NCBI GenBank assembly: GCA_963813715.1 | Contig: CAWFAK010000005.1 | Span: 1,024,001-1,088,000 of the forward strand | Direction: 5' to 3' | From: an uncultured Planctomycetaceae bacterium | Lineage (GTDB): Bacteria; Planctomycetota; Planctomycetia; Planctomycetales; Planctomycetaceae | DNA length: 64,000 bases | Part shown: in pieces, positions 4,158 to 28,925 of the stretch | How the letters are laid out: the number at the start of each line of letters is the position of its first letter | How positions within the stretch are numbered: position 1 is the stretch's first letter | Notes under the pieces: model-generated | The model's database searches: none | What the model was told of the DNA's origin: nothing | What the model saw: only the letters and a program-made list of their open reading frames with translations | Position numbers and translations under genes: made by a program

Positions 4158-6023
<1,866 letters not shown>

Positions 6024-15791: not shown

Positions 15792-16613
15792 ATGAGAACG
15801 AGGTTTTTGCCCTTCTTCATTTTGCTGTCACTCGTGGCGATATCGTGGGGGGCTGCCCTGCGCGAAGCAAGCGCCGGTCCAATCACCGTGGACAAGGACG
15901 CGGCGAAACGCGGCAAGAAGATTTACGTGTGTCCTCCTTGTGGACTCGACTGCGACAAAGAAACGCACGACAAGCCGGGGGTCTGCCCGCGCTGCGGAAT
16001 GACCCTCGTGGAAAAAACGATTGAGTCGCACGCGTCGGGCGAAAAACCGCTAACGGTCGCCATTTTGCTTTTCAACGGCGTCGAAATCATCGACTACTCC
16101 GGCCCCTGGGAAGTGTTTGGTGCCGCTGGCTTTGACGTGCATACGGTCGCCTCAGCCCTGGGCCCCATTAAGACCGTCTTCGGCCAGAAAGTTATTCCGG
16201 ACTACACGCTAGAGAACAGCCCCAAGGCCGATATCGTGCTCATTCCTGGGGGAAACATCGCTTCGGCGCTGAACGATGCGAGAGTGATCCAGTGGATCCG
16301 GGCTCGCTCGAAAGATGCGAAGCAGGTGATGTCGGTTTGTAACGGTGCTTTTCTGCTGGCAAAGGCCGGTCTCTTGGATGGATTGTCGGCAACAACAGTT
16401 CGCGGAGGGATCGAGAGACTCGCCAAAGTCGCACCCCGAACTAAAGTCGTGCACAACCAGCGCGATGTCGACAATGGCAAGTTCATCACCACTGCGGGCC
16501 TTTCCGCCGGGATCGACGGGGCAATGCATCTGGTCGCGAAGACTCTGGGACACGATGCCGCCCAGGCAGTCGCCTACGGACTCGAATACCGATGGGACGA
16601 CGAGCCGAAGTGA
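15792..16613 (+). CDS. Exported DJ-1/PfpI protein with N-terminal heavy-metal-binding-type Cys module
   Basis: Signal peptide; YVCPPCGLDCD...KPGVCPRCGMTLV; IDYSGPWEVF, SVCNGA, AGLSAGID. Confidence 0.85.
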   Translation: MRTRFLPFFILLSLVAISWGAALREASAGPITVDKDAAKRGKKIYVCPPCGLDCDKETHDKPGVCPRCGMTLVEKTIESHASGEKPLTVAILLFNGVEIIDYSGPWEVFGAAGFDVHTVASALGPIKTVFGQKVIPDYTLENSPKADIVLIPGGNIASALNDARVIQWIRARSKDAKQVMSVCNGAFLLAKAGLLDGLSATTVRGGIERLAKVAPRTKVVHNQRDVDNGKFITTAGLSAGIDGAMHLVAKTLGHDAAQAVAYGLEYRWDDEPK

Positions 16614-16694
16614 GTCGGCTACGATCGCGACCATACGACGTGCCGTGCAAACGTACGGAGTCAATAAACTCGTCGTAGCGGCCGGATCCAACGA

Positions 16695-17417
16695 TCAGCC
16701 GACCAGCTCGACCTTGCCGGTGCCCAGGTGGTAGACGCCGCCGGCAACTTTCAATTCGCCCGAACGTGACGAGCTTCGCCAAAATCGGCTCCAGGCTTTG
16801 GAGTCGCCGGACGCCCTCGACGACATTTGCCTTGATCACGTTGGCGAGCTTGTTGCCGGGCTGCCCCGCCACCATTTTGACAACCGGTCGAATCGGGTTG
16901 ATGAGGGCGTCGATCGATCCGGGGAGTGCGTCGTTGGCCTCGATGTGCTCGATCGCCGCCTTGCACGCGCCGCATTCGCTGTGGCCCAGTACCAGGACCA
17001 GTCGGGTCTTCAGCTCAGCGACGGCGTATTCGATGCTCCCCTTCACCGTGGGCCCGCGCCGCTGACGACGTTGCCGGCGATGCGGATGACAAACAAGTCG
17101 CCGATGGCCTGGTCGAAAATTACTTCGGGAGCCACGCGCGAGTCCGCGCACCCGACGATGACGGCATGCGGAGCCTGTCCGTGCTCCAGTGGCAGAAAGT
17201 CCTGCGGAGTGCGTCCCGGGTGCCGGAGTCTGCCTTCGACGAACCTCTGGTTGCCGGCGAGTAACTGATGGAGTACCGCGTCGGGTTTCGGCTGCTCGGC
17301 CGCGTCGGCGGCGCCTCGCGGCGAGAGGCCAGTCAGACCGGACATCCCCATCACCCCCACGGTCGCCGCGGCACTCCCCATGAACTTACGTCGGGACAAT
17401 TGATCCAAGTTATCCAT
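16695..17417 (-). CDS. Beta-class carbonic anhydrase, Tat-exported (2 frameshifts)
   Basis: SRRKFMG Tat motif; GCADSRV; RIAGN; GHSECGA; C-terminus GVYHLGTGKVELVG in a third frame. Confidence 0.88.
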
Positions 17418-17460
17418 AACTCAGCTCCTTATAGGTCCGCGTACGCGAGTCGGCGGCAAT

Positions 17461-17495
17461 AAAAACAGCCACCTTGTGTGGCCACAAGTGGCTGT
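17461..17495 (-). terminator. Intrinsic terminator following the displaced tRNA 3' fragment
   Basis: Inverted repeat ACAGCCAC-CTTGTG / CACAAG-TGGCTGT followed by a T run on the minus strand. Confidence 0.6.
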
Positions 17496-17520
17496 GCGTG
17501 TTTCGGGGCAATCCAAAAAG

Positions 17521-17542
17521 GTGGTCGTGGCAGGATTTCGAA
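17521..17542 (-). repeat. Duplicated 3' end of tRNA-Val (att-like direct repeat)
   Basis: GTGGTCGTGGCAGGATT at 17521..17537 is identical to 21384..21400 and continues (T)CGAA into the T-loop. Confidence 0.85.
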
Positions 17543-17822
17543 GAATCGCCGAATTCCCTCGGAAATACAAGCGCCGCTACACGAAGCTGTGCTAAATCCG
17601 GTGCAGTTGGAGGCGATTTTCCCACTTTGACACCCGGGGACTGGACTCGGCTCGTGGCGGGGTTCGGGCATTTCCCCGCGTTGCTACAGAGTGCGCGTAA
17701 TCGATGCGGCTTGGGGCGTGCTCTCGGACCAGACACGACCGGACGTCGGCCGCCTCATCACCGGGCCCTACCGATCGATGAACGCGCGGGCCAGCCGAGA
17801 TCTCGGACTGACTGCGATCCGA

Positions 17823-18254
17823 TCACTCAAGGGGAGGCAGGATATCCGGCTCGATCTGATAACCGTCCGCGATCGAATTTGTCGTGTTGAACAAGCCGAC
17901 GATCGCCAGGACTTCTCCCAGGGCTTCGGTATCGAGGCCAAGCTTTCTTAACGCGGCCGTGTGCGAATTGACGCAATAGGAACAGCCGTTGGTCGCCGAT
18001 ACTGCAAGGGCAATGATCTCGCGTGTCGTCGCATCGAGCTTGGGTTGACGTCCTACTGCTTCAGGATGCATCAGCGCCTTGAGACTCGACCAAACCAAGT
18101 CGAGGTGGTCAGGGTTGGTTGCGAGCACTCGCCACAGGTTGGGCACAAAGGGAATGTTCTTCGTCCTCTTGATGTCAGCATACACGTCGGCCACTCTCCC
18201 GTTCGCATCTTCCTCAGCGACTGGAACGACCGTTGCAATTCTCTGAGCAGACAT
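17823..18254 (-). CDS. AhpD-like / carboxymuconolactone decarboxylase family protein
   Basis: REIIALAVSATNGCSYCVNSH (CxxC...H AhpD core). Confidence 0.9.
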   Translation of the reverse strand: MSAQRIATVVPVAEEDANGRVADVYADIKRTKNIPFVPNLWRVLATNPDHLDLVWSSLKALMHPEAVGRQPKLDATTREIIALAVSATNGCSYCVNSHTAALRKLGLDTEALGEVLAIVGLFNTTNSIADGYQIEPDILPPLE

Positions 18255-18389
18255 GGAGGAACCCTTTCGTGAAATGTTACGGTGGCCTCCGGCCGGCTTC
18301 TCGGCATGGCTCTGGTTCTACGACAAATGAAGGGTCCAGCCCACTCGTCTCCGGACTCTGTCTCCCCTTTCACTCCGAGATCCAGCTTT

Positions 18390-18623
18390 TCATTGTCCGT
18401 CTCCGATCGCACGGCCCTCGCGACGACCATCTTGCTCAACTCGCCGCGATTCGCAGAGGCTCCGGACGGCTTGCTTTTGCTCATCGGTCAGTTGCGACCA
18501 TGTGGCAATTTCATCAATCGTTCGCCGACACGCGACGCAGTAGAGCCTCGTGGCATCAAGCGTGCAATCGCCCCGACACGGAGAAGACGCCGCGTCAACG
18601 TCCGCCGGAGGAAAACGCTGCAT
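18390..18623 (-). CDS. DUF1289 family small Cys protein
   Basis: SPCRGDCTLD...CVACRRTIDEIATW signature. Confidence 0.8.
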   Translation of the reverse strand: MQRFPPADVDAASSPCRGDCTLDATRLYCVACRRTIDEIATWSQLTDEQKQAVRSLCESRRVEQDGRREGRAIGDGQ

Positions 18624-18637
18624 GGTAACTTACTCGG

Positions 18638-19231
18638 TTATTTCCGGACGGGCGTGCGGCGCGAGCCGGAGCCGATGAACGCCTTCGGCCCGGGTGCCGC
18701 AGGCGGAGTTTCGCCGGCGACCGATAGATTGAACGTGTAGTCCGTTTTACCGGGCGCTTGATGATCGATGAGGAACTCCGGTTTTTTCGAGCTGACCTCG
18801 GGGTCGTTGTAGAGATTCTTGAGCGAGTCCGGTCCCAGGAAGCCCATCCTCGGATTGTAGCCCAGCTGGGCAAAGAGCATTATATATTTGCCAGGCGGCA
18901 GCAGTGGGAATTCGAACGACCCATCCGGCTTGACGATGGCAGTTGCACTGCTGTTGGCCTTGGCTTCGGGCTTCGCGGCGGCGTAGGCGATCGCCACGAG
19001 GCGCGCGGTCTCGGATTTCGCAGCGGGAAGCTCATCGTCAACGGTGATCTTTCCGCCCAACGGATAAGCCGTCACCGGATTCATTCCGGCGCTTTCATAG
19101 GCTTTCTCGAGACGTTGAGCCGTGGACTCGCGTCCGCCACACCCGACGGGCACGAGGAAGATAAACGTCGCTGCGATCCCCCACGCGATTTTGCGCCGGT
19201 GCGCGCGGCGACTCAGAAGGGCGGGTGCCAT
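18638..19231 (-). CDS. Lipoprotein of the type that commonly follows DUF1559 genes
   Basis: Lipobox-like PVGCGG; GKITVDD, DGSFEF, PPGKY, DSLKNLYNDP. Confidence 0.75.
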   Translation of the reverse strand: MAPALLSRRAHRRKIAWGIAATFIFLVPVGCGGRESTAQRLEKAYESAGMNPVTAYPLGGKITVDDELPAAKSETARLVAIAYAAAKPEAKANSSATAIVKPDGSFEFPLLPPGKYIMLFAQLGYNPRMGFLGPDSLKNLYNDPEVSSKKPEFLIDHQAPGKTDYTFNLSVAGETPPAAPGPKAFIGSGSRRTPVRK

Positions 19232-19274
19232 TCCATCGACTCCACTCTCTCAAAGACGCGGAGAGATTCCGTCT

Positions 19275-19316
19275 AGAAGAAAGTCGGCCGCCCTGGACAC
19301 GTCCAGAGCGGTCGAC
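19275..19316 (-). terminator. Stem-loop / terminator between the DUF1559 gene and the lipoprotein gene
   Basis: GTCGGCCGCCCTGGAC / GTCCAGAGCGGTCGAC inverted repeat followed by TTTCTTCT on the minus strand. Confidence 0.55.
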
Positions 19317-19340
19317 CGGAGTTCGCAGGCGACGGTCATG

Positions 19341-20591
19341 TTAGAACTGGTCAGGCACGGCTTCGTGTCCGCGCGGCGTCATCAGCGCGACGAATGTGAC
19401 GATCGAAATATTCTCGCTCACCATGCGAGCGGATCCGTCGCACATGGCCACCCCACCCGAGCCCGGGTGGAAGCTGAAAATGGCGTTGTAGCCGATCTCG
19501 TTCGTGCAGTTGATGAAACAGACCGGCATTGGGCAGTTTGTGCTCGAAAAGCAACTCGGCTTACTGAGGCCGGTGAAGTCGGACCCGAGCACATAGGCGA
19601 CCGCGTTCGTCGAGGCCCAAGCGCCGCCTGAGTTAAAAGCGTGAGCGGCGAGGGGCGTGGGCAAAGTCGTCTTGCCGGCTCTTGTCCAGCAATCCGGCCG
19701 GCCCGCCATCTCAGTGCAGAAAAGCGTCGTGGACGTCCCGTCGGTGATCTGATCAATCGATAAGCCGCAGGAATTCGAGAGAAAGCTGTGAAACAGGCCG
19801 GTGGGCCCAATGAACCCGCTGCCTCCGGCGCCGGGAATGCCGAGTGCGTGTGTGTAAAACGCGTGGGCAGACGAATCCAGATCGCACAGGCCTTCGTAAT
19901 CCAAAGCACCGTGAAGGCGTTTGAAGGCAAAGCAGGTGCGACAGAATGTGAGACAGAATTCGTAGATCGCGTTTCCCTCGACAAATGGATTTTGCGTTCG
20001 CGGCGACGAGGGGCAGACGTAGGACGGTATGACGGCGGCCGCTGGGCGGGTGTAGGCACAGGGATCGAGGCACGGACAGCCAGAATTTGCAAAGGTGTAC
20101 TTAGTCGGGCACGGAACGCCCGACAGGCAGACCGGGGAGAAGATCGGCGCGTTCATGCAAATTCGGCTGTAAACCGTGTTGGCTTCCACGAACGGCAACA
20201 GCCGTTCCGGCCATGTGTGCAAATTATAGTCGTTGCGGCCAACGCTCCCGGGCACGCCAACTGTGAACAACGTCCCGCAGAAGCAATCCTGCAAGTAACC
20301 GGTCGCCACGCCGCACGTGCACACGAAGGGGGGTGGGCCGCAGAATGTGTCGGCGTTGTAGATCACTGTTGTCGCCGGCGGGAATTGGTTGTTGACGTCG
20401 TGATAATTGTGGGCTGCCAGCGCGATCTGCTTGAGGTTGTTGCGACATTGAGTGCGTCGCGCTGCCTCGCGCGCCGCTTGCACGGCCGGCAGCAAAAGCG
20501 CGATGAGCACGGCGATGATGGCGATCACCACCAACAGCTCGATCAGCGTGAACCCGGGCGGCGCCTGATCCAATCGTTTTCTTTTCAACAT
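19341..20591 (-). CDS. DUF1559 prepilin-type protein with H-X9-DG C-terminal motif, Cys-rich
   Basis: [65 protein letters not shown]. Confidence 0.95.
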
Positions 20592-20851
20592 GACAAGTCC
20601 TCGTTGTCTGGGGCCCGTCCGGATGGTTGATCCGGCAGCCCGCGCGGCAAACGGGGCCTCGCGTCGCGAAGAGGCGCATGCTCTCCCAATCCAGGCCGCG
20701 GGCGTTCGGCGATTCGCATGTTGCGCGGCGCACGCGCGAACGCCAACCGACGGACGGTGGATGAGAATCGCCGCGATGTCGCGCCATCAACGAGGTGCGC
20801 GGCAGCGCAAGAACGCGTGTCTTCGTTCCCCGAAAGACCCGAATGCAAAAC

Positions 20852-21054
20852 GACGAATGGGCAGGTCTTCTGGCTTCCGGATCGGCCTACTCACCGCACC
20901 TTCCCGCCCGGCTCGCTCGCGATGTGGTCGCGACCTTCGCAGGACAGTGGTATTTGCGGCTTTCGTCCCCGGTTACAGCGGCGGGACCGCGACGGATTCG
21001 CACCGTCTTCCCTATTCTTCGTCCGGGCCACAAGCCCGAGACGACACCCACGTC
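20852..21054 (-). ncRNA. Cobalamin (B12) riboswitch
   Basis: Minus strand reads AATAGGGAAGACGGTGCGAATCCGTCGCGGTCCCGCCGCTGTAA ... CCACTG ... GGGAAGG ... AGCCAGAAGACCTGCC (B12 box); P1 pairing between GACGTGGGT and GCCCATTCGTC. Confidence 0.95.
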
Positions 21055-21061
21055 GCGGGTC

Positions 21062-21089
21062 ATCCTAACGCGCGCGGAACGCTTGTCAA
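21062..21089 (-). promoter_or_regulatory. Sigma70-type promoter for the riboswitch leader
   Basis: TTGACA (21089-21084), 16 nt, TAGGAT (21067-21062); predicted +1 coincides with the riboswitch 5' end. Confidence 0.7.
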
Positions 21090-21357: not shown

Positions 21358-21384
21358 GAGGTGCCTGAGTGCAGGCCAATCAAG

Positions 21385-21458
21385 TGGTCGTGGCAGGATT
21401 CGAACCTGCGACCCCATCGATGTGAGCGATGTGCGCTAACCAACTGCGCTACACGACC
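21385..21458 (-). tRNA. tRNA-Val (anticodon CAC), CCA not encoded
   Basis: GGTCGTG/CACGACC acceptor stem, AGTTGGTTAG D-loop, CATCG-CTCACAT-CGATG anticodon arm, GGTTCGAATCC T-arm. Confidence 0.97.
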
Positions 21459-26398: not shown

Positions 26399-28925
26399 TT
26401 ACGAAGCGCTCGGCGGCGCCGACTCCTTGTCGCCTGAGCCGGCTCCCACGAGTTCGCCTTCGCCCGTGCCGGTGCCGACGAAGTCGAGCTGCTTCTGGTC
26501 GCCCACTTCCTTGACCGTGACCAGAATGCGGGTCTTGCCTTCGAAGGCGCCTCGCAAGAGTTCTTCGGAGAGCGGGTCTTCGATGTAGGTCGACACGCTA
26601 CGACGCAGCGGCCGGGCGCCGTAATCGGTGTCCCCACCCCTGTCGATGATGAACTCGCGAGCTTCGTCGGTCAGCTCCAGCTTCAGGCCGCGCTCGGCCA
26701 GCCGGTTGTAGACCTTCCCCAGCTCGATGTCGACGATCTTCTTCAGGTTGTCGCGCGTCAGCTTGCGGAAGACGACGATCTCGTCGATACGGCCGATGAA
26801 CTCCGGCTTGAACTCGCGTTCGATCACGTGCTTCAGCCGTTCCCGCATCTTGTCGTAGTTGCTGTCCTCGTCCCGCTTGCCGAAGCCGAAGACGTCGCCC
26901 TGATTGATGACGTCGGCTCCTGCGTTGGTCGTCATGATCAGCACCACGTTGCGGAAGTCGACCTTGCGGCCGAAGCTGTCCGTGAGGTGGCCTTCTTCCA
27001 TGATCTGCAGCAGCATGTTGAAGACGTCGGGGTGGGCCTTCTCGATTTCGTCCAAGAGGACGACCGAGTAGGGCCGACGGCGAATCTTCTCGGTGAGCTG
27101 ACCACCCTCTTCGTAGCCGACATAGCCCGGCGGTGCGCCGATCAGCCGGCTGACGTTGTGCTTCTCCATGTACTCGCTCATGTCGATCTGCACGAGGGCC
27201 TCTTCGTCGCCGAACATGAATTCGGCGAGCGTCTTGGCCAGCAGCGTCTTACCGACGCCCGTGGGACCGGAGAGCAAGAACACGCCCGTGGGCCGCTTTG
27301 GATCTTTCAGTCCGCTGCGGCTGCGGCGGACCGCCTTGGCGATCTGCTTGATCGCTTCGTCCTGGCTGACGATCCGCTTGTGCAGCTCGTCTTCCATCGC
27401 GAGCAACCGAACCGCGTCCTCGCTCGACAGCCGCGTCAGCGGCACACCCGTCATGCGGGCGACCACGTCGGCGATCACGTCGGCATCGACGACGCCGTCG
27501 GTCTCGCGGGCCTTGTCGCGCCACTCGCGGGTGAGCGATTCCTTCTTCTTCTTGAGCTTGTCGGCCTGATCGCGGAGGCCAGCCGCCTTCTCGAAGTCCT
27601 GGTTGGCGACCGCTTCTTCCTTGGCGACGTTGAGCCGCTCGATCTCTTCTTCCAGTTCTTTCAAGTCCGGCGGACGGACCATCGACTTCAGCCGGATCCG
27701 GGCACCCGCCTCGTCGATGACGTCGATCGCCTTGTCCGGCAGGCAGCGGCCCGTGATGTAACGGGACGACAGCTCGACGGCCTTGGCCAATGCGTCGTCG
27801 GTGTACTGCACGCGATGGTGCGACTCGTACCGGTCGCGGAGCCCCTTCAGGATCAGAACGGTCTGCTCCTGGCTGGGCGGCTCGACCATCACGGTCTGGA
27901 AGCGGCGTTCGAGCGCCCCGTCCTTCTCGATGTACTTGCGGTACTCGTCGAGAGTCGTGGCGCCGATGCACTGCAGCTCGCCCCGGCTCAGGGCCGGCTT
28001 GAGCACGTTCGACGCGTCGATGGCCCCTTCGGCCCCGCCCGCGCCGACCAGCGTGTGCAACTCGTCGATAAACAGGATCGTGTTCTTCGCGCGGCGAACT
28101 TCGTTCATCACCGCCTTGATCCGCTCCTCGAACTGGCCGCGATACTTGGTGCCGGCGACCATCATCGCCAGGTCGAGCACGACCACGCGCTTGTCGCGGA
28201 GCAGCTCGGGAACGTTTGCGTCGACCACCATCTGGGCAAAGCCCTCGACGATGGCCGTCTTGCCGACGCCCGCCTCGCCCAACAGGACGGGGTTGTTCTT
28301 CTGGCGGCGGCAGAGGATCTGAATCGACGCGCTCGATCTCGCGCTCGCGGCCGATCACCGGGTCCAGCTTGCCCTGGCGGGCCAGATCGGTCAGGTCGCG
28401 ACCGAAACTGTCGAGGGCCGGGGTCTTGCTCTTGCCGGCCTTCTGCTGGGCGGCCGTGCCGCGCTCGCCGGTTTCGGAGGCTTCCAGCCCGTGGCCGAGC
28501 AGGTTGAGGACTTCCTCGCGAACGTCTTCGAGCTTCATTCCCAAGTTCATGAGAACCTGGGCGGCCACTCCTTCTTGTTCGCGGAGCAGGCCAAGCAATA
28601 AGTGTTCGGTGCCAACGTAGTTATGGTTGAGGTTGCGGGCCTCTTCCATCGCGTATTCGATGACTTTTTTGGCTCGCGGTGTCTGGGGCAGCTTGCCCAT
28701 CGTCACCATGTCGGGACCCGACTGGACGATCTTTTCGACTTCCAGACGGATTTTCCGCAGGTCGACGTCGAGGTTCTTGAGCACATTCGCCGCGACGCCG
28801 GAGCCTTCCTTCACCAGTCCGAGCAGGATGTGCTCGGTGCCGATGTATTCGTGGTTGAAGCGCTGCGCCTCTTGGTTGGCGAGCTGCATCACTTTTCGGG
28901 CTCGATCGGTAAATCGTTCGTACAT
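26399..28925 (-). CDS. clpC: ATP-dependent Clp protease ATP-binding subunit ClpC (frameshift near 28325)
   Basis: [12 protein letters not shown]lp_N repeats, GEAGVGKT and GPTGVGKT Walker A motifs, UVR-type M-domain, GAPPGYVGY. Confidence 0.96.

Follow-up and report, generated by a model that had tools for sequence, protein, structure and literature searches.

A cobalamin riboswitch precedes a DUF1559 prepilin-type gene in Planctomycetaceae: a candidate envelope module for corrinoid capture

Introduction

Why should a cobalamin (vitamin B12) riboswitch be placed in front of a gene for a pilin-like protein? The question is raised by a locus at positions 18,390-21,089 of a 64,000-nucleotide stretch of DNA (the window) from an uncultured Planctomycetaceae bacterium (assembly GCA_963813715.1, contig CAWFAK010000005.1, positions 1,024,001-1,088,000), where such a riboswitch is followed by a prepilin-type gene of the DUF1559 family and by a lipoprotein gene. 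The genome measures 7.49 Mb in 18 contigs and is 82.6% complete. Few paralog families of Planctomycetes without an assigned function are as large as DUF1559: more than 8,000 relatives were returned in one search, and one study gives 68 DUF1559 genes for P. limnophila, two of them essential (PMC10632474). A riboswitch before particular members of the family, alternating in related genomes with the B12 receptor BtuB, provides a first direct and testable clue to function. The reading favored here, held with somewhat more confidence than doubt, is that the DUF1559 protein and the lipoprotein form a B12-repressed envelope module for corrinoid capture, standing where BtuB stands elsewhere.

The riboswitch and its leader

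The unit lies on the minus strand of the window and consists of the following features, given from the upstream boundary inward:

21384..21458, minus strand: tRNA-Val(CAC), upstream boundary of the relocated unit, common to the sibling locus L054
21062..21089, minus strand: sigma-70-like promoter TTGACA-16-TAGGAT, 10 of 12 consensus matches, abutting the 5' end of the aptamer
20843..21064, minus strand: complete cobalamin riboswitch aptamer (RF00174), by covariance model
20592..20842, minus strand: leader of 251 nucleotides (nt), the presumed expression platform, conserved in an alignment of orthologs
19341..20591, minus strand: DUF1559 prepilin-type gene, 416 amino acids (aa) with 25 Cys, by Pfam and NCBIfam models
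18638..19231, minus strand: partner lipoprotein gene, 197 aa, a beta-sandwich in the fold model, with invariant G30/C31

A preliminary description of the window had listed the promoter, riboswitch, leader, DUF1559 gene, lipoprotein gene and a small Cys protein gene (DUF1289, treated below); all are present on this strand and co-oriented, with gaps of 109 nt between the DUF1559 and lipoprotein genes and 14 nt between the lipoprotein and DUF1289 genes. It had also remarked on the absence of btuB, btuFCD, cbi and metE nearby, and none was found among the open reading frames (ORFs) examined between 15000 and 26000. The riboswitch itself is genuine and full-length, with RF00174 matched over model positions 1-189 of 189 at 21064..20843 (114.4 bits against a gathering score of 31.5, E 6e-28). 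Its B12-box region AGCCAGAAGACCUGCC, near the 3' side, matches the consensus AGCCAGGAGACCuGCC and is invariant in 7 orthologs, and the orthologous aptamers in 7 related loci score 109-117 bits. One other RF00174 match, of 40.7 bits, is present in the genome on another contig (locus L002); this truncated copy does not have the B12 box. The promoter taken alone is not above chance, since one promoter-like site was found in 3.8 kb where shuffled sequences give 1.0; the -35 element GTTGACA, however, does not vary among the 7 aligned relatives, 5 of which keep the -10 element TAGGAT.

In the consensus fold of seven orthologous leaders, an upstream GCAUG...CCUCUUCG segment pairs with the Shine-Dalgarno sequence CGAGGA and the AUG, and no terminator-like site was predicted in the leader (20592..20842). 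Control by B12 would be repression, probably at translation through sequestration of the Shine-Dalgarno sequence and AUG. A terminator-like site within the DUF1559 coding region (20244..20231) was set aside as a chance occurrence, having a 5-pair stem and being one of 2 sites where 4.0 are expected. Contigs from four metatranscriptomes (95-100% identity) cover the aptamer and the DUF1559, lipoprotein, DUF1289 and AhpD-like genes, and cross both the DUF1559-lipoprotein and lipoprotein-DUF1289 junctions. Because DNA carry-over is possible, and strand and level are not shown, these contigs were not counted as proof of transcription. Leader positions 20621-20747 were uncovered in every run, from which nothing was concluded.

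Conservation of the linkage and its alternation with BtuB

Linkage was surveyed in family, class and phylum samples, the best-scoring loci of each being the ones inspected. The family sample (f1) comprises 61 genomes, 53 of which carry an RF00174 match, with 59 matches listed. Besides the window copy and its truncated remnant, 57 matches remain: 44 have a prepilin-type or DUF1559 gene directly downstream, six a TonB-dependent receptor gene and three other genes (L209, L215, L218), two are at contig ends, and G006 and G032 were left out. The window protein, used as query, detected a prepilin N-terminus 3' of the riboswitch and on its strand in 28 of the 29 non-window loci among the best 30; in the remaining one (L030, extended as L051) a DUF1559 gene was identified by Pfam. 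Twenty further matches gave a prepilin-type ORF directly downstream in 15, none in three, and contig ends in two. As a control for chance, the window's genome contains 62 PF07596 matches, with about 50 DUF1559 genes per 7.5 Mb.

The class sample (101 genomes, 25 new loci) extended the linkage to four further families, in which, together with one family that lacks it, 12 of 17 loci are linked (f82, 8/8; f83, 2/3; f84, 1/2; f91, 1/1; f81, 0/3); in the same sample, 6 of 7 testable loci of f1 are linked. A riboswitch with a prepilin-type gene immediately after it was likewise present in four of four named isolates, i.e., strain SH248, Planctopirus hydrillae JC280, Tautonia sp. JC769 and Paludisphaera soli JC670. 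The preliminary description had named, as an outcome that would count against it, a linkage unique to this locus; with 44 of 57 loci in f1, 12 of 17 in other families and all four isolates linked, this is not the case. The linkage is real and conserved, and it was described in no paper found. The searchable full-text literature, from which subscription journals are mostly absent, yielded no pilin under a vitamin riboswitch and no paper on a DUF1559-cobalamin linkage or on DUF6580, a family that appears among the operon partners below. The DUF1559 literature, judged by title and start of abstract, held nothing on B12, and searches on planctomycete cobalamin riboswitches or riboswitch-pilin pairing listed only papers that appeared unrelated.

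Among the loci inspected in the sample of the phylum (151 genomes), the linkage was not seen in other classes. No prepilin motif was present within 0.7-1.5 kb in the 28 best-scoring loci from families of other classes, nor in 20 loci extended to 2-7.6 kb; the motif scan recovers 26 of 29 family loci, so these negatives are not a fault of the method. First genes in the 20 extended loci included TonB-dependent receptors in six (several followed by FecCD or ExbB) and beta-propeller proteins in four, as well as proteins with TIG or PKD domains, BtuF/FecCD genes and a class I ribonucleotide reductase. Within f1, the BtuB-type receptor and the pilin-like gene alternate at the riboswitch in an either/or pattern. 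A TonB-dependent barrel of any kind occurs in 19 of 61 genomes, and in six of these the barrel gene lies 3' of the only riboswitch match of the genome (assignments made by coordinates, with one of the six riboswitches below threshold). The globular domain typical of the family (residues 81-301 of the L049 protein) was found in none of five genomes with a riboswitch-led TonB receptor (79-100% complete) and exactly once, at the riboswitch, in each of three control genomes.

Among the other classes, some riboswitch-led genes encode proteins of a different kind. Those at L159, L164, L172 and L174 are secreted, with weak matches to 7-bladed beta-propellers, those at L169 and L176 have TIG domains, and that at L161 is a PKD protein. 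All are candidates for other surface B12 binders.

Operon partners and a split operon

Downstream genes were surveyed by extending 20 loci of f1. A gene for a DUF6580 membrane protein lies 3' of the DUF1559 gene in ten loci, including L033, L034, L037, L039, L042 and L048-L051, and a BtuF-type Peripla_BP_2 gene is present in L043, L046, L047, L049 and L051. At L041 the gene 3' of DUF1559 encodes a DUF4465 protein with PEP-CTERM, and L035 contains nitroreductase, CobQ, CobO and CobT genes. The partners are corrinoid genes rather than cobalt genes, which ties the linkage to corrinoids, and the link of the ligand to corrinoids is well supported by genomic context. DUF6580 is a polytopic protein of about 190-225 aa for which no NCBIfam model was matched. 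In two genera, the riboswitch-led DUF1559 gene is separated from the BtuF-like gene by one that matches PF01902 (diphthamide-synthase-like ATP-binding; L046, 3706-4404, minus strand; L047, 3803-4615, minus strand).

In the lineage of the window the operon exists in two forms. In genomes G061 and G299 (L052, L059) a Sua5-like gene is followed by a single riboswitch and then by DUF1559, lipoprotein, DUF6580 and BtuF-like genes. In the window's own genome and in its sibling G298 (L054), a weak riboswitch match (40.7 and 45.6 bits) stands between the Sua5-like gene and the DUF6580 and BtuF-like genes; the pilin-lipoprotein pair, with the full riboswitch, instead adjoins tRNA-Val, where unsplit operons have the Sua5-like gene upstream. 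The weak copy (G000:C7:645891-649079, riboswitch at 1501-1689 of locus L002) is nearly base-identical to the window copy over the promoter and roughly the first two-thirds of the aptamer and then diverges, without the 3' third of the aptamer or the B12-box region, as does the G298 copy (L225). An arrangement in which both operon halves have a functional riboswitch was considered and ruled out on the basis of this missing 3' third. As the weak copy is without the B12 box, the intact switch stayed with the pilin-lipoprotein pair at the split, and the DUF6580 and BtuF-like genes behind the truncated copy may, from its sequence, have been freed from B12 control in the window's genome. The BtuF-like proteins of this lineage (L002, 2523-3188; L052, 6339-7379; L059, 6352-7329) open directly with the first strand (MPEPR..IVSLIASATEIV), show no recognizable signal peptide, and may be cytoplasmic or otherwise unconventional BtuF relatives working with DUF6580.

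According to PMC12639061, B12 improves the biomass of strain SH248, and P. limnophila strictly requires it. The window's genome, at 82.6% completeness, has four B12-binding domain matches, one of them in a 939-aa frame, and no match for MetE, CbiC, FecCD or a TonB-dependent barrel. Relatives of the CobQ, CobO, CobT, nitroreductase and DUF4465 proteins of related loci were not found in it either, and G061, G298 and G299 gave no match for a TonB-dependent barrel or FecCD.

The pilin-like protein, the lipoprotein and their predicted complex

The DUF1559 protein belongs clearly to the DUF1559/H-X9-DG family, having both the C-terminal domain of that name and the N-terminal methylation motif: PF07596 was matched at 126.1 bits (cut-off 23.3, E 3.4e-36), PF07963 (N_methyl) at 26.1 against 21.2, TIGR02532 at 27.2 against 16.3 and TIGR04294 at 23.1 against 19. 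The hydrophobic N-terminus contains a class III signal motif, G13|F14-T-L-I-E18, with Glu at +5, as in type IV pilin signals, and F14, L16, I17 and E18 are invariant in 97 sequences (alignment A2). The GspG, GspH, GspI and GspJ models matched the N-terminus below their cut-offs, and only over residues 13-82 (GspG, 35.8 against 88.85 bits). All matches to named pilin and pseudopilin equivalogs (GspG, GspH, ComGC, PilA) are far below the curated cut-offs, so that the protein is not placed in any of them.

In the AlphaFold2 (AF2) model, with a predicted local distance difference test score (pLDDT) of 86.6 and a predicted template modeling score of 0.84, a helix spanning residues 16-67 is joined to a beta-rich, Cys-rich domain; the protein contains 25 Cys and 10 His. 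Foldseek against the PDB matched the helix alone. A wide VIA-align search gave 15 chains at Z of at least 2, all of them type IV pilins or pseudopilins (including PilA4, ComP, PilV, EpsG and PulG), with Z only 2.2-3.8. A solute-binding-protein fold, as implied by the Pfam name SBP_bac_10, found no support among the listed fold matches. The TonB-dependent receptor domains PF00593 and PF07715 matched none of the three window proteins, which places them outside the BtuB family; from its genomic setting the DUF1559 protein would nonetheless work in the position of BtuB. Components with which a pilin-like protein could be processed or assembled are encoded in the genome, with four matches for the prepilin peptidase Peptidase_A24, eight for secretins and 17 for the type II secretion/type IV pilus ATPase T2SSE.

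In the partner lipoprotein, G30 and C31 are invariant (alignment A3). Its AF2 model (pLDDT 78) is a prealbumin-like sandwich, and Foldseek against the PDB returned prealbumin-like sandwiches, with EMC7 at E 5e-4, and DUF3823. The sole Pfam match, CarboxypepD_reg (PF13620), at 18.7 bits, is below the gathering score of 32.3 and does not assign the protein to that family. An Atlas search returned unnamed planctomycete clusters; PF13620 is carried by the nearest named ones, with scores (0.85-0.89) that can serve only as leads. Of the 41 loci L052-L092, 37 have a lipoprotein homolog (25-89% identity) 3' of DUF1559, with or without a riboswitch. Since it follows linked and unlinked DUF1559 genes alike, the pair is a generic two-gene cassette, one copy of which would be B12-controlled. 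At G000:C17:714066-720715, three tandem DUF1559 genes about 2.7 kb apart group together on the tree, which shows a recent local amplification of the cassette.

A complex of the DUF1559 globular domain with the lipoprotein was modeled with a score of 0.81, against 0.00 for the best of three controls. Of solved complexes, 116 of 157 attain this mark, as do 2 of 215 mismatched pairs; these counts hold only roughly, because the present models were made with alignments of our own. The runs share at least 71% of contacts, with a partner pLDDT of at least 82, and the modeling supports a predicted heterodimer of the globular domain and the lipoprotein.

Loci of the family-typical clade described in the next section have a conserved ORF of about 100 aa of their own directly 3' of DUF1559 in 19 of 27 cases (L033-L051, L202-L214). 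Many of its members have a lipobox and a V-Y-V-D-x-E-T-like motif; the ORF family matches no Pfam or NCBIfam family and has no detectable homology to the window lipoprotein.

Phylogeny of linked and unlinked DUF1559 proteins

A first tree of 97 prepilin-type proteins included 20 riboswitch-linked proteins of the family, the window protein with six linked orthologs, 69 unlinked paralogs (34 from the window's genome) and one untestable protein. For a second tree, 32 linked proteins were added and three very long rows from the window's genome dropped, giving 126 rows. The trees include 35 of the approximately 50 DUF1559 genes of the window's genome; L064 (linked) and L058 (cut) were missed by the motif finder and left out. 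In the first tree, 18 of the 20 family-linked proteins form one clade with a Shimodaira-Hasegawa-like approximate likelihood ratio test (SH-aLRT) support of 100 and with no paralog from the window's genome inside it. In the second, the corresponding clade contains 43 proteins from five families, all riboswitch-linked, with support 100. The preliminary description had put forward a single clade of linked proteins as a check, and this is borne out in part: the large clade holds 43 of the 59 linked proteins on the tree, but the window protein falls outside it. A weak group (support 51) unites nine more linked proteins.

The window protein and its orthologs belong instead to a clade of nine rows (support 99-100), which includes the unlinked L056 and the untestable L053, and which is nested among about 45 unlinked paralogs of about 400 aa. 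This subfamily is specific to the lineage, and each of its members is paired with a homologous lipoprotein. Orthologs are 74-98% identical to the window protein, and paralogs from the same metagenome-assembled genomes 41-59%. A riboswitch is upstream in seven loci, all at 74% identity or above, and in none of the 11 testable others (L056 at 72%, ten at 44-59%); two more are at contig ends. When all linked proteins were required to form one clade, the tree was 39.5 log-likelihood units worse, and the approximately unbiased (AU) test did not reject it (p 0.081), the group having been named after inspection of the tree. Independently of the trees, a family-typical protein matches the window's genome and the single-chromosome relative G061 only over the N-terminal helix, to about residue 125 of 301. 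On our reading of these sequences, the usual B12-linked subfamily would have been replaced in this lineage by another DUF1559 subfamily at the same operon position.

Interpretation and alternative explanations

The mechanism envisaged is one in which the riboswitch, when B12 is plentiful, would turn off a two-gene module of the DUF1559 protein and lipoprotein. The two proteins, as a predicted heterodimer, would most likely act in the outer part of corrinoid acquisition, either in capture or in passage across the outer envelope, and would fill the place of the BtuB-type TonB-dependent receptor of other Planctomycetota. The vitamin might then be handed to the DUF6580 membrane protein and the BtuF-like protein, which close relatives encode within this operon and the window's genome at another site. 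Such a module would account for the supply of the vitamin to B12-dependent planctomycetes in which BtuB and BtuCD are not detected, and a pilin-type component would be new among the known kinds of vitamin uptake. The arrangement occurs in cultured strains, so the idea is testable at once. The core of the preliminary description (the riboswitch and its linkage to DUF1559) is retained here, without its inclusion of DUF1289 and its option of cobalt as ligand.

Several points weigh against this reading, whose support comes from sequence and models. The helix pairing with the Shine-Dalgarno sequence and AUG shows one-sided changes only, with no compensatory pairs in the seven leaders, and leader stability equals that of shuffled sequences (z 0.76). 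Neither protein model resembles any known B12-binding protein: similarity to BtuF/Peripla_BP_2, DUF4465 or BtuG-type beta-propellers was found for neither protein by Pfam or among the listed fold matches (a missing fold match excludes nothing), and the lipoprotein fold is a generic beta-sandwich without a B12 link. Close cousins of a true partner can also pass the complex test, and what the model predicts may be a property of the cassette family at large and not of this pair in particular. The position of the window protein outside the main B12-linked clade must be counted here as well; its nearest paralogs (56-72% identity) are without a riboswitch, so that a specificity for B12 would have to be recent, and repeated recruitment cannot be argued firmly, since a single origin was not rejected by the AU test. 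The failure to find canonical importers applies to a genome that is 82.6% complete, and to G061, G298 and G299, for which completeness figures are lacking.

Of the other explanations, the one that stays closest to corrinoid capture has the lipoprotein as the corrinoid binder and DUF1559 as only a membrane anchor, carrier or assembly partner, in pseudopilus display or envelope crossing. This appears somewhat improbable. The predicted binding of the lipoprotein to the pilin-like protein is in its favor, as are the small ORF, of a separate and unrelated family, that comes just 3' of DUF1559 in 19 of 27 loci of the family-typical clade, and the DUF4465 and PEP-CTERM partner in L041. The fold matches of the lipoprotein, generic sandwiches with no B12 link, speak against it, and the partners of the two clades are not detectably homologous, the pilin-like component being the constant element. 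If the lipoprotein were the binder, the module would still serve B12 capture, yet no ligand would be assigned to DUF1559; the lipoprotein is as good a candidate for the binder as the pilin-like protein. It is unlikely that neither protein touches the vitamin and that the pair is a dedicated secretion or surface-display component, such as a minor pseudopilin of a type II-like secretion system, exporting or anchoring other B12 scavengers. The pseudopilin-like N-terminus, with its sub-threshold matches to GspG, GspH, GspI and GspJ, and the secretins and type II secretion ATPases of the genome would suit that role, but the operon in the window lineage encodes no secreted binder, only the lipoprotein, DUF6580 and BtuF-like genes, and the alternation of BtuB with DUF1559 fits a receptor-like role better than export.

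The pilin-like gene could also be a passenger, with the riboswitch serving the DUF6580 and BtuF-like transporter genes, which share the operon in most relatives; it would then have come to lie between them by position alone, or have an envelope function without a bearing on B12; DUF1559 genes are, moreover, numerous and mobile within these genomes. Nevertheless, the gene comes first after the riboswitch in 44 loci of a single family, and does so in four further families, the 43-member clade is exclusive to riboswitches and single-copy at that site, and in the window's genome and G298 the intact riboswitch was kept after separation from the transporter genes, all of which make a passenger role quite improbable. 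Import of cobalt rather than corrinoid, the second ligand proposed in the preliminary description, is disfavored and very improbable. In its favor, cobalt transporters of B12 producers are known to be under cobalamin riboswitches, and the DUF1559 protein, with 25 Cys, is Cys-rich and also contains 10 His. However, no CbiC, CobQ, CobO or CobT was found in the genome (82.6% complete), so that cobalt would feed no B12 pathway, and the operon partners in relatives are corrinoid and not cobalt proteins.

A broader reading, also somewhat improbable, is that B12 is imported in planctomycetes of the class by a pilus or pseudopilus, in which ligand-specific DUF1559 subunits with their own lipoproteins would capture cargo and pass it through a secretin-type channel. 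Were this so, each genome would hold, in its 50-70 DUF1559 paralogs, a set of capture proteins for different substrates, in the role of the TonB-dependent receptors of other Gram-negatives, and the riboswitch-linked members would be the first DUF1559 proteins with an assigned ligand.

Neighboring genes in the window

Downstream of the lipoprotein gene, the window departs from its relatives in the following features:

17452..18639, minus strand: window-specific insertion of 1,188 bp, from alignment to the sibling locus L054
18390..18623, minus strand: gene for a small Cys protein of the DUF1289 family, 77 aa (PF06945, E 2.5e-15)
17823..18254, minus strand: AhpD/CMD-like gene, within the 1,188-bp insertion

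The DUF1289 assignment itself is sound, with PF06945 matched at 56.5 bits against a cut-off of 27. Window positions 19297..18640 and 17451..16671 are collinear with 4796-5450 and 5566-6346 of L054, which has 115 bp where the window has the segment 18639..17452; the DUF1559 protein of this sibling genome, which is without the insertion, is 98% identical to that of the window. The DUF1289 gene was found by tblastn in none of 77 related loci. Lying with the AhpD-like gene in an insertion absent from the sibling, and carried by no related locus, it is outside the conserved unit, and its inclusion in the system by the preliminary description could not be upheld. It may be co-transcribed with the lipoprotein gene here, its start being 14 nt past the lipoprotein stop codon.

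Further downstream, a beta-carbonic anhydrase (16486-17417, minus strand) is divided into two overlapping ORFs, 17417..17043 and 17151..16486, where L054 has a single ORF of 261 aa; the split is a frameshift, due to either a pseudogene or an assembly error. About 6 kb from the riboswitch unit on its other side, a 651-aa frame has a weak T2SSE match of 25.8 bits (window 26984-27307, minus strand; G000:C5:1050984-1051307).

Comparison with known systems

The closest parallel in gene order is the btuB leader of E. coli and Salmonella, where a cobalamin riboswitch controls the TonB-dependent outer-membrane B12 receptor, which works with BtuFCD, and acts on translation initiation. As there, the same riboswitch family stands before the first gene of what would be a B12 acquisition unit, and the likely control at translation initiation resembles that case. 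The controlled product differs, being a prepilin-type protein with a lipoprotein instead of a beta-barrel, and the four genomes of the lineage gave no match for a barrel or FecCD.

In Bacteroides, BtuG and BtuH are surface lipoproteins for B12 capture, encoded in riboswitch-controlled btuB loci and working with the BtuB barrel; DUF4465 is a B12-binding domain in that genus. The system proposed here would share with these an accessory envelope lipoprotein under a B12 riboswitch, with capture of the vitamin taking place outside the inner-membrane transporter, and a DUF4465 protein occurs in the relative L041. However, no barrel accompanies it, and both window proteins are unlike beta-propellers and DUF4465.

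With type IV pilins and type II pseudopilins, including ComP and ComGC, the window protein has in common the G|FTLIE motif, Glu5 and a long N-terminal helix. It differs in having three times the size of a typical pilin, large insertions rich in Cys and the H-X9-DG C-terminus. Competence pili provide a precedent in that pilin-type proteins can bind cargo and bring it inside. For the inner-membrane step, the small polytopic DUF6580 protein of relatives, encoded outside the window, could play a part like that of the single-component B12 transporters of the BtuM/ECF type.

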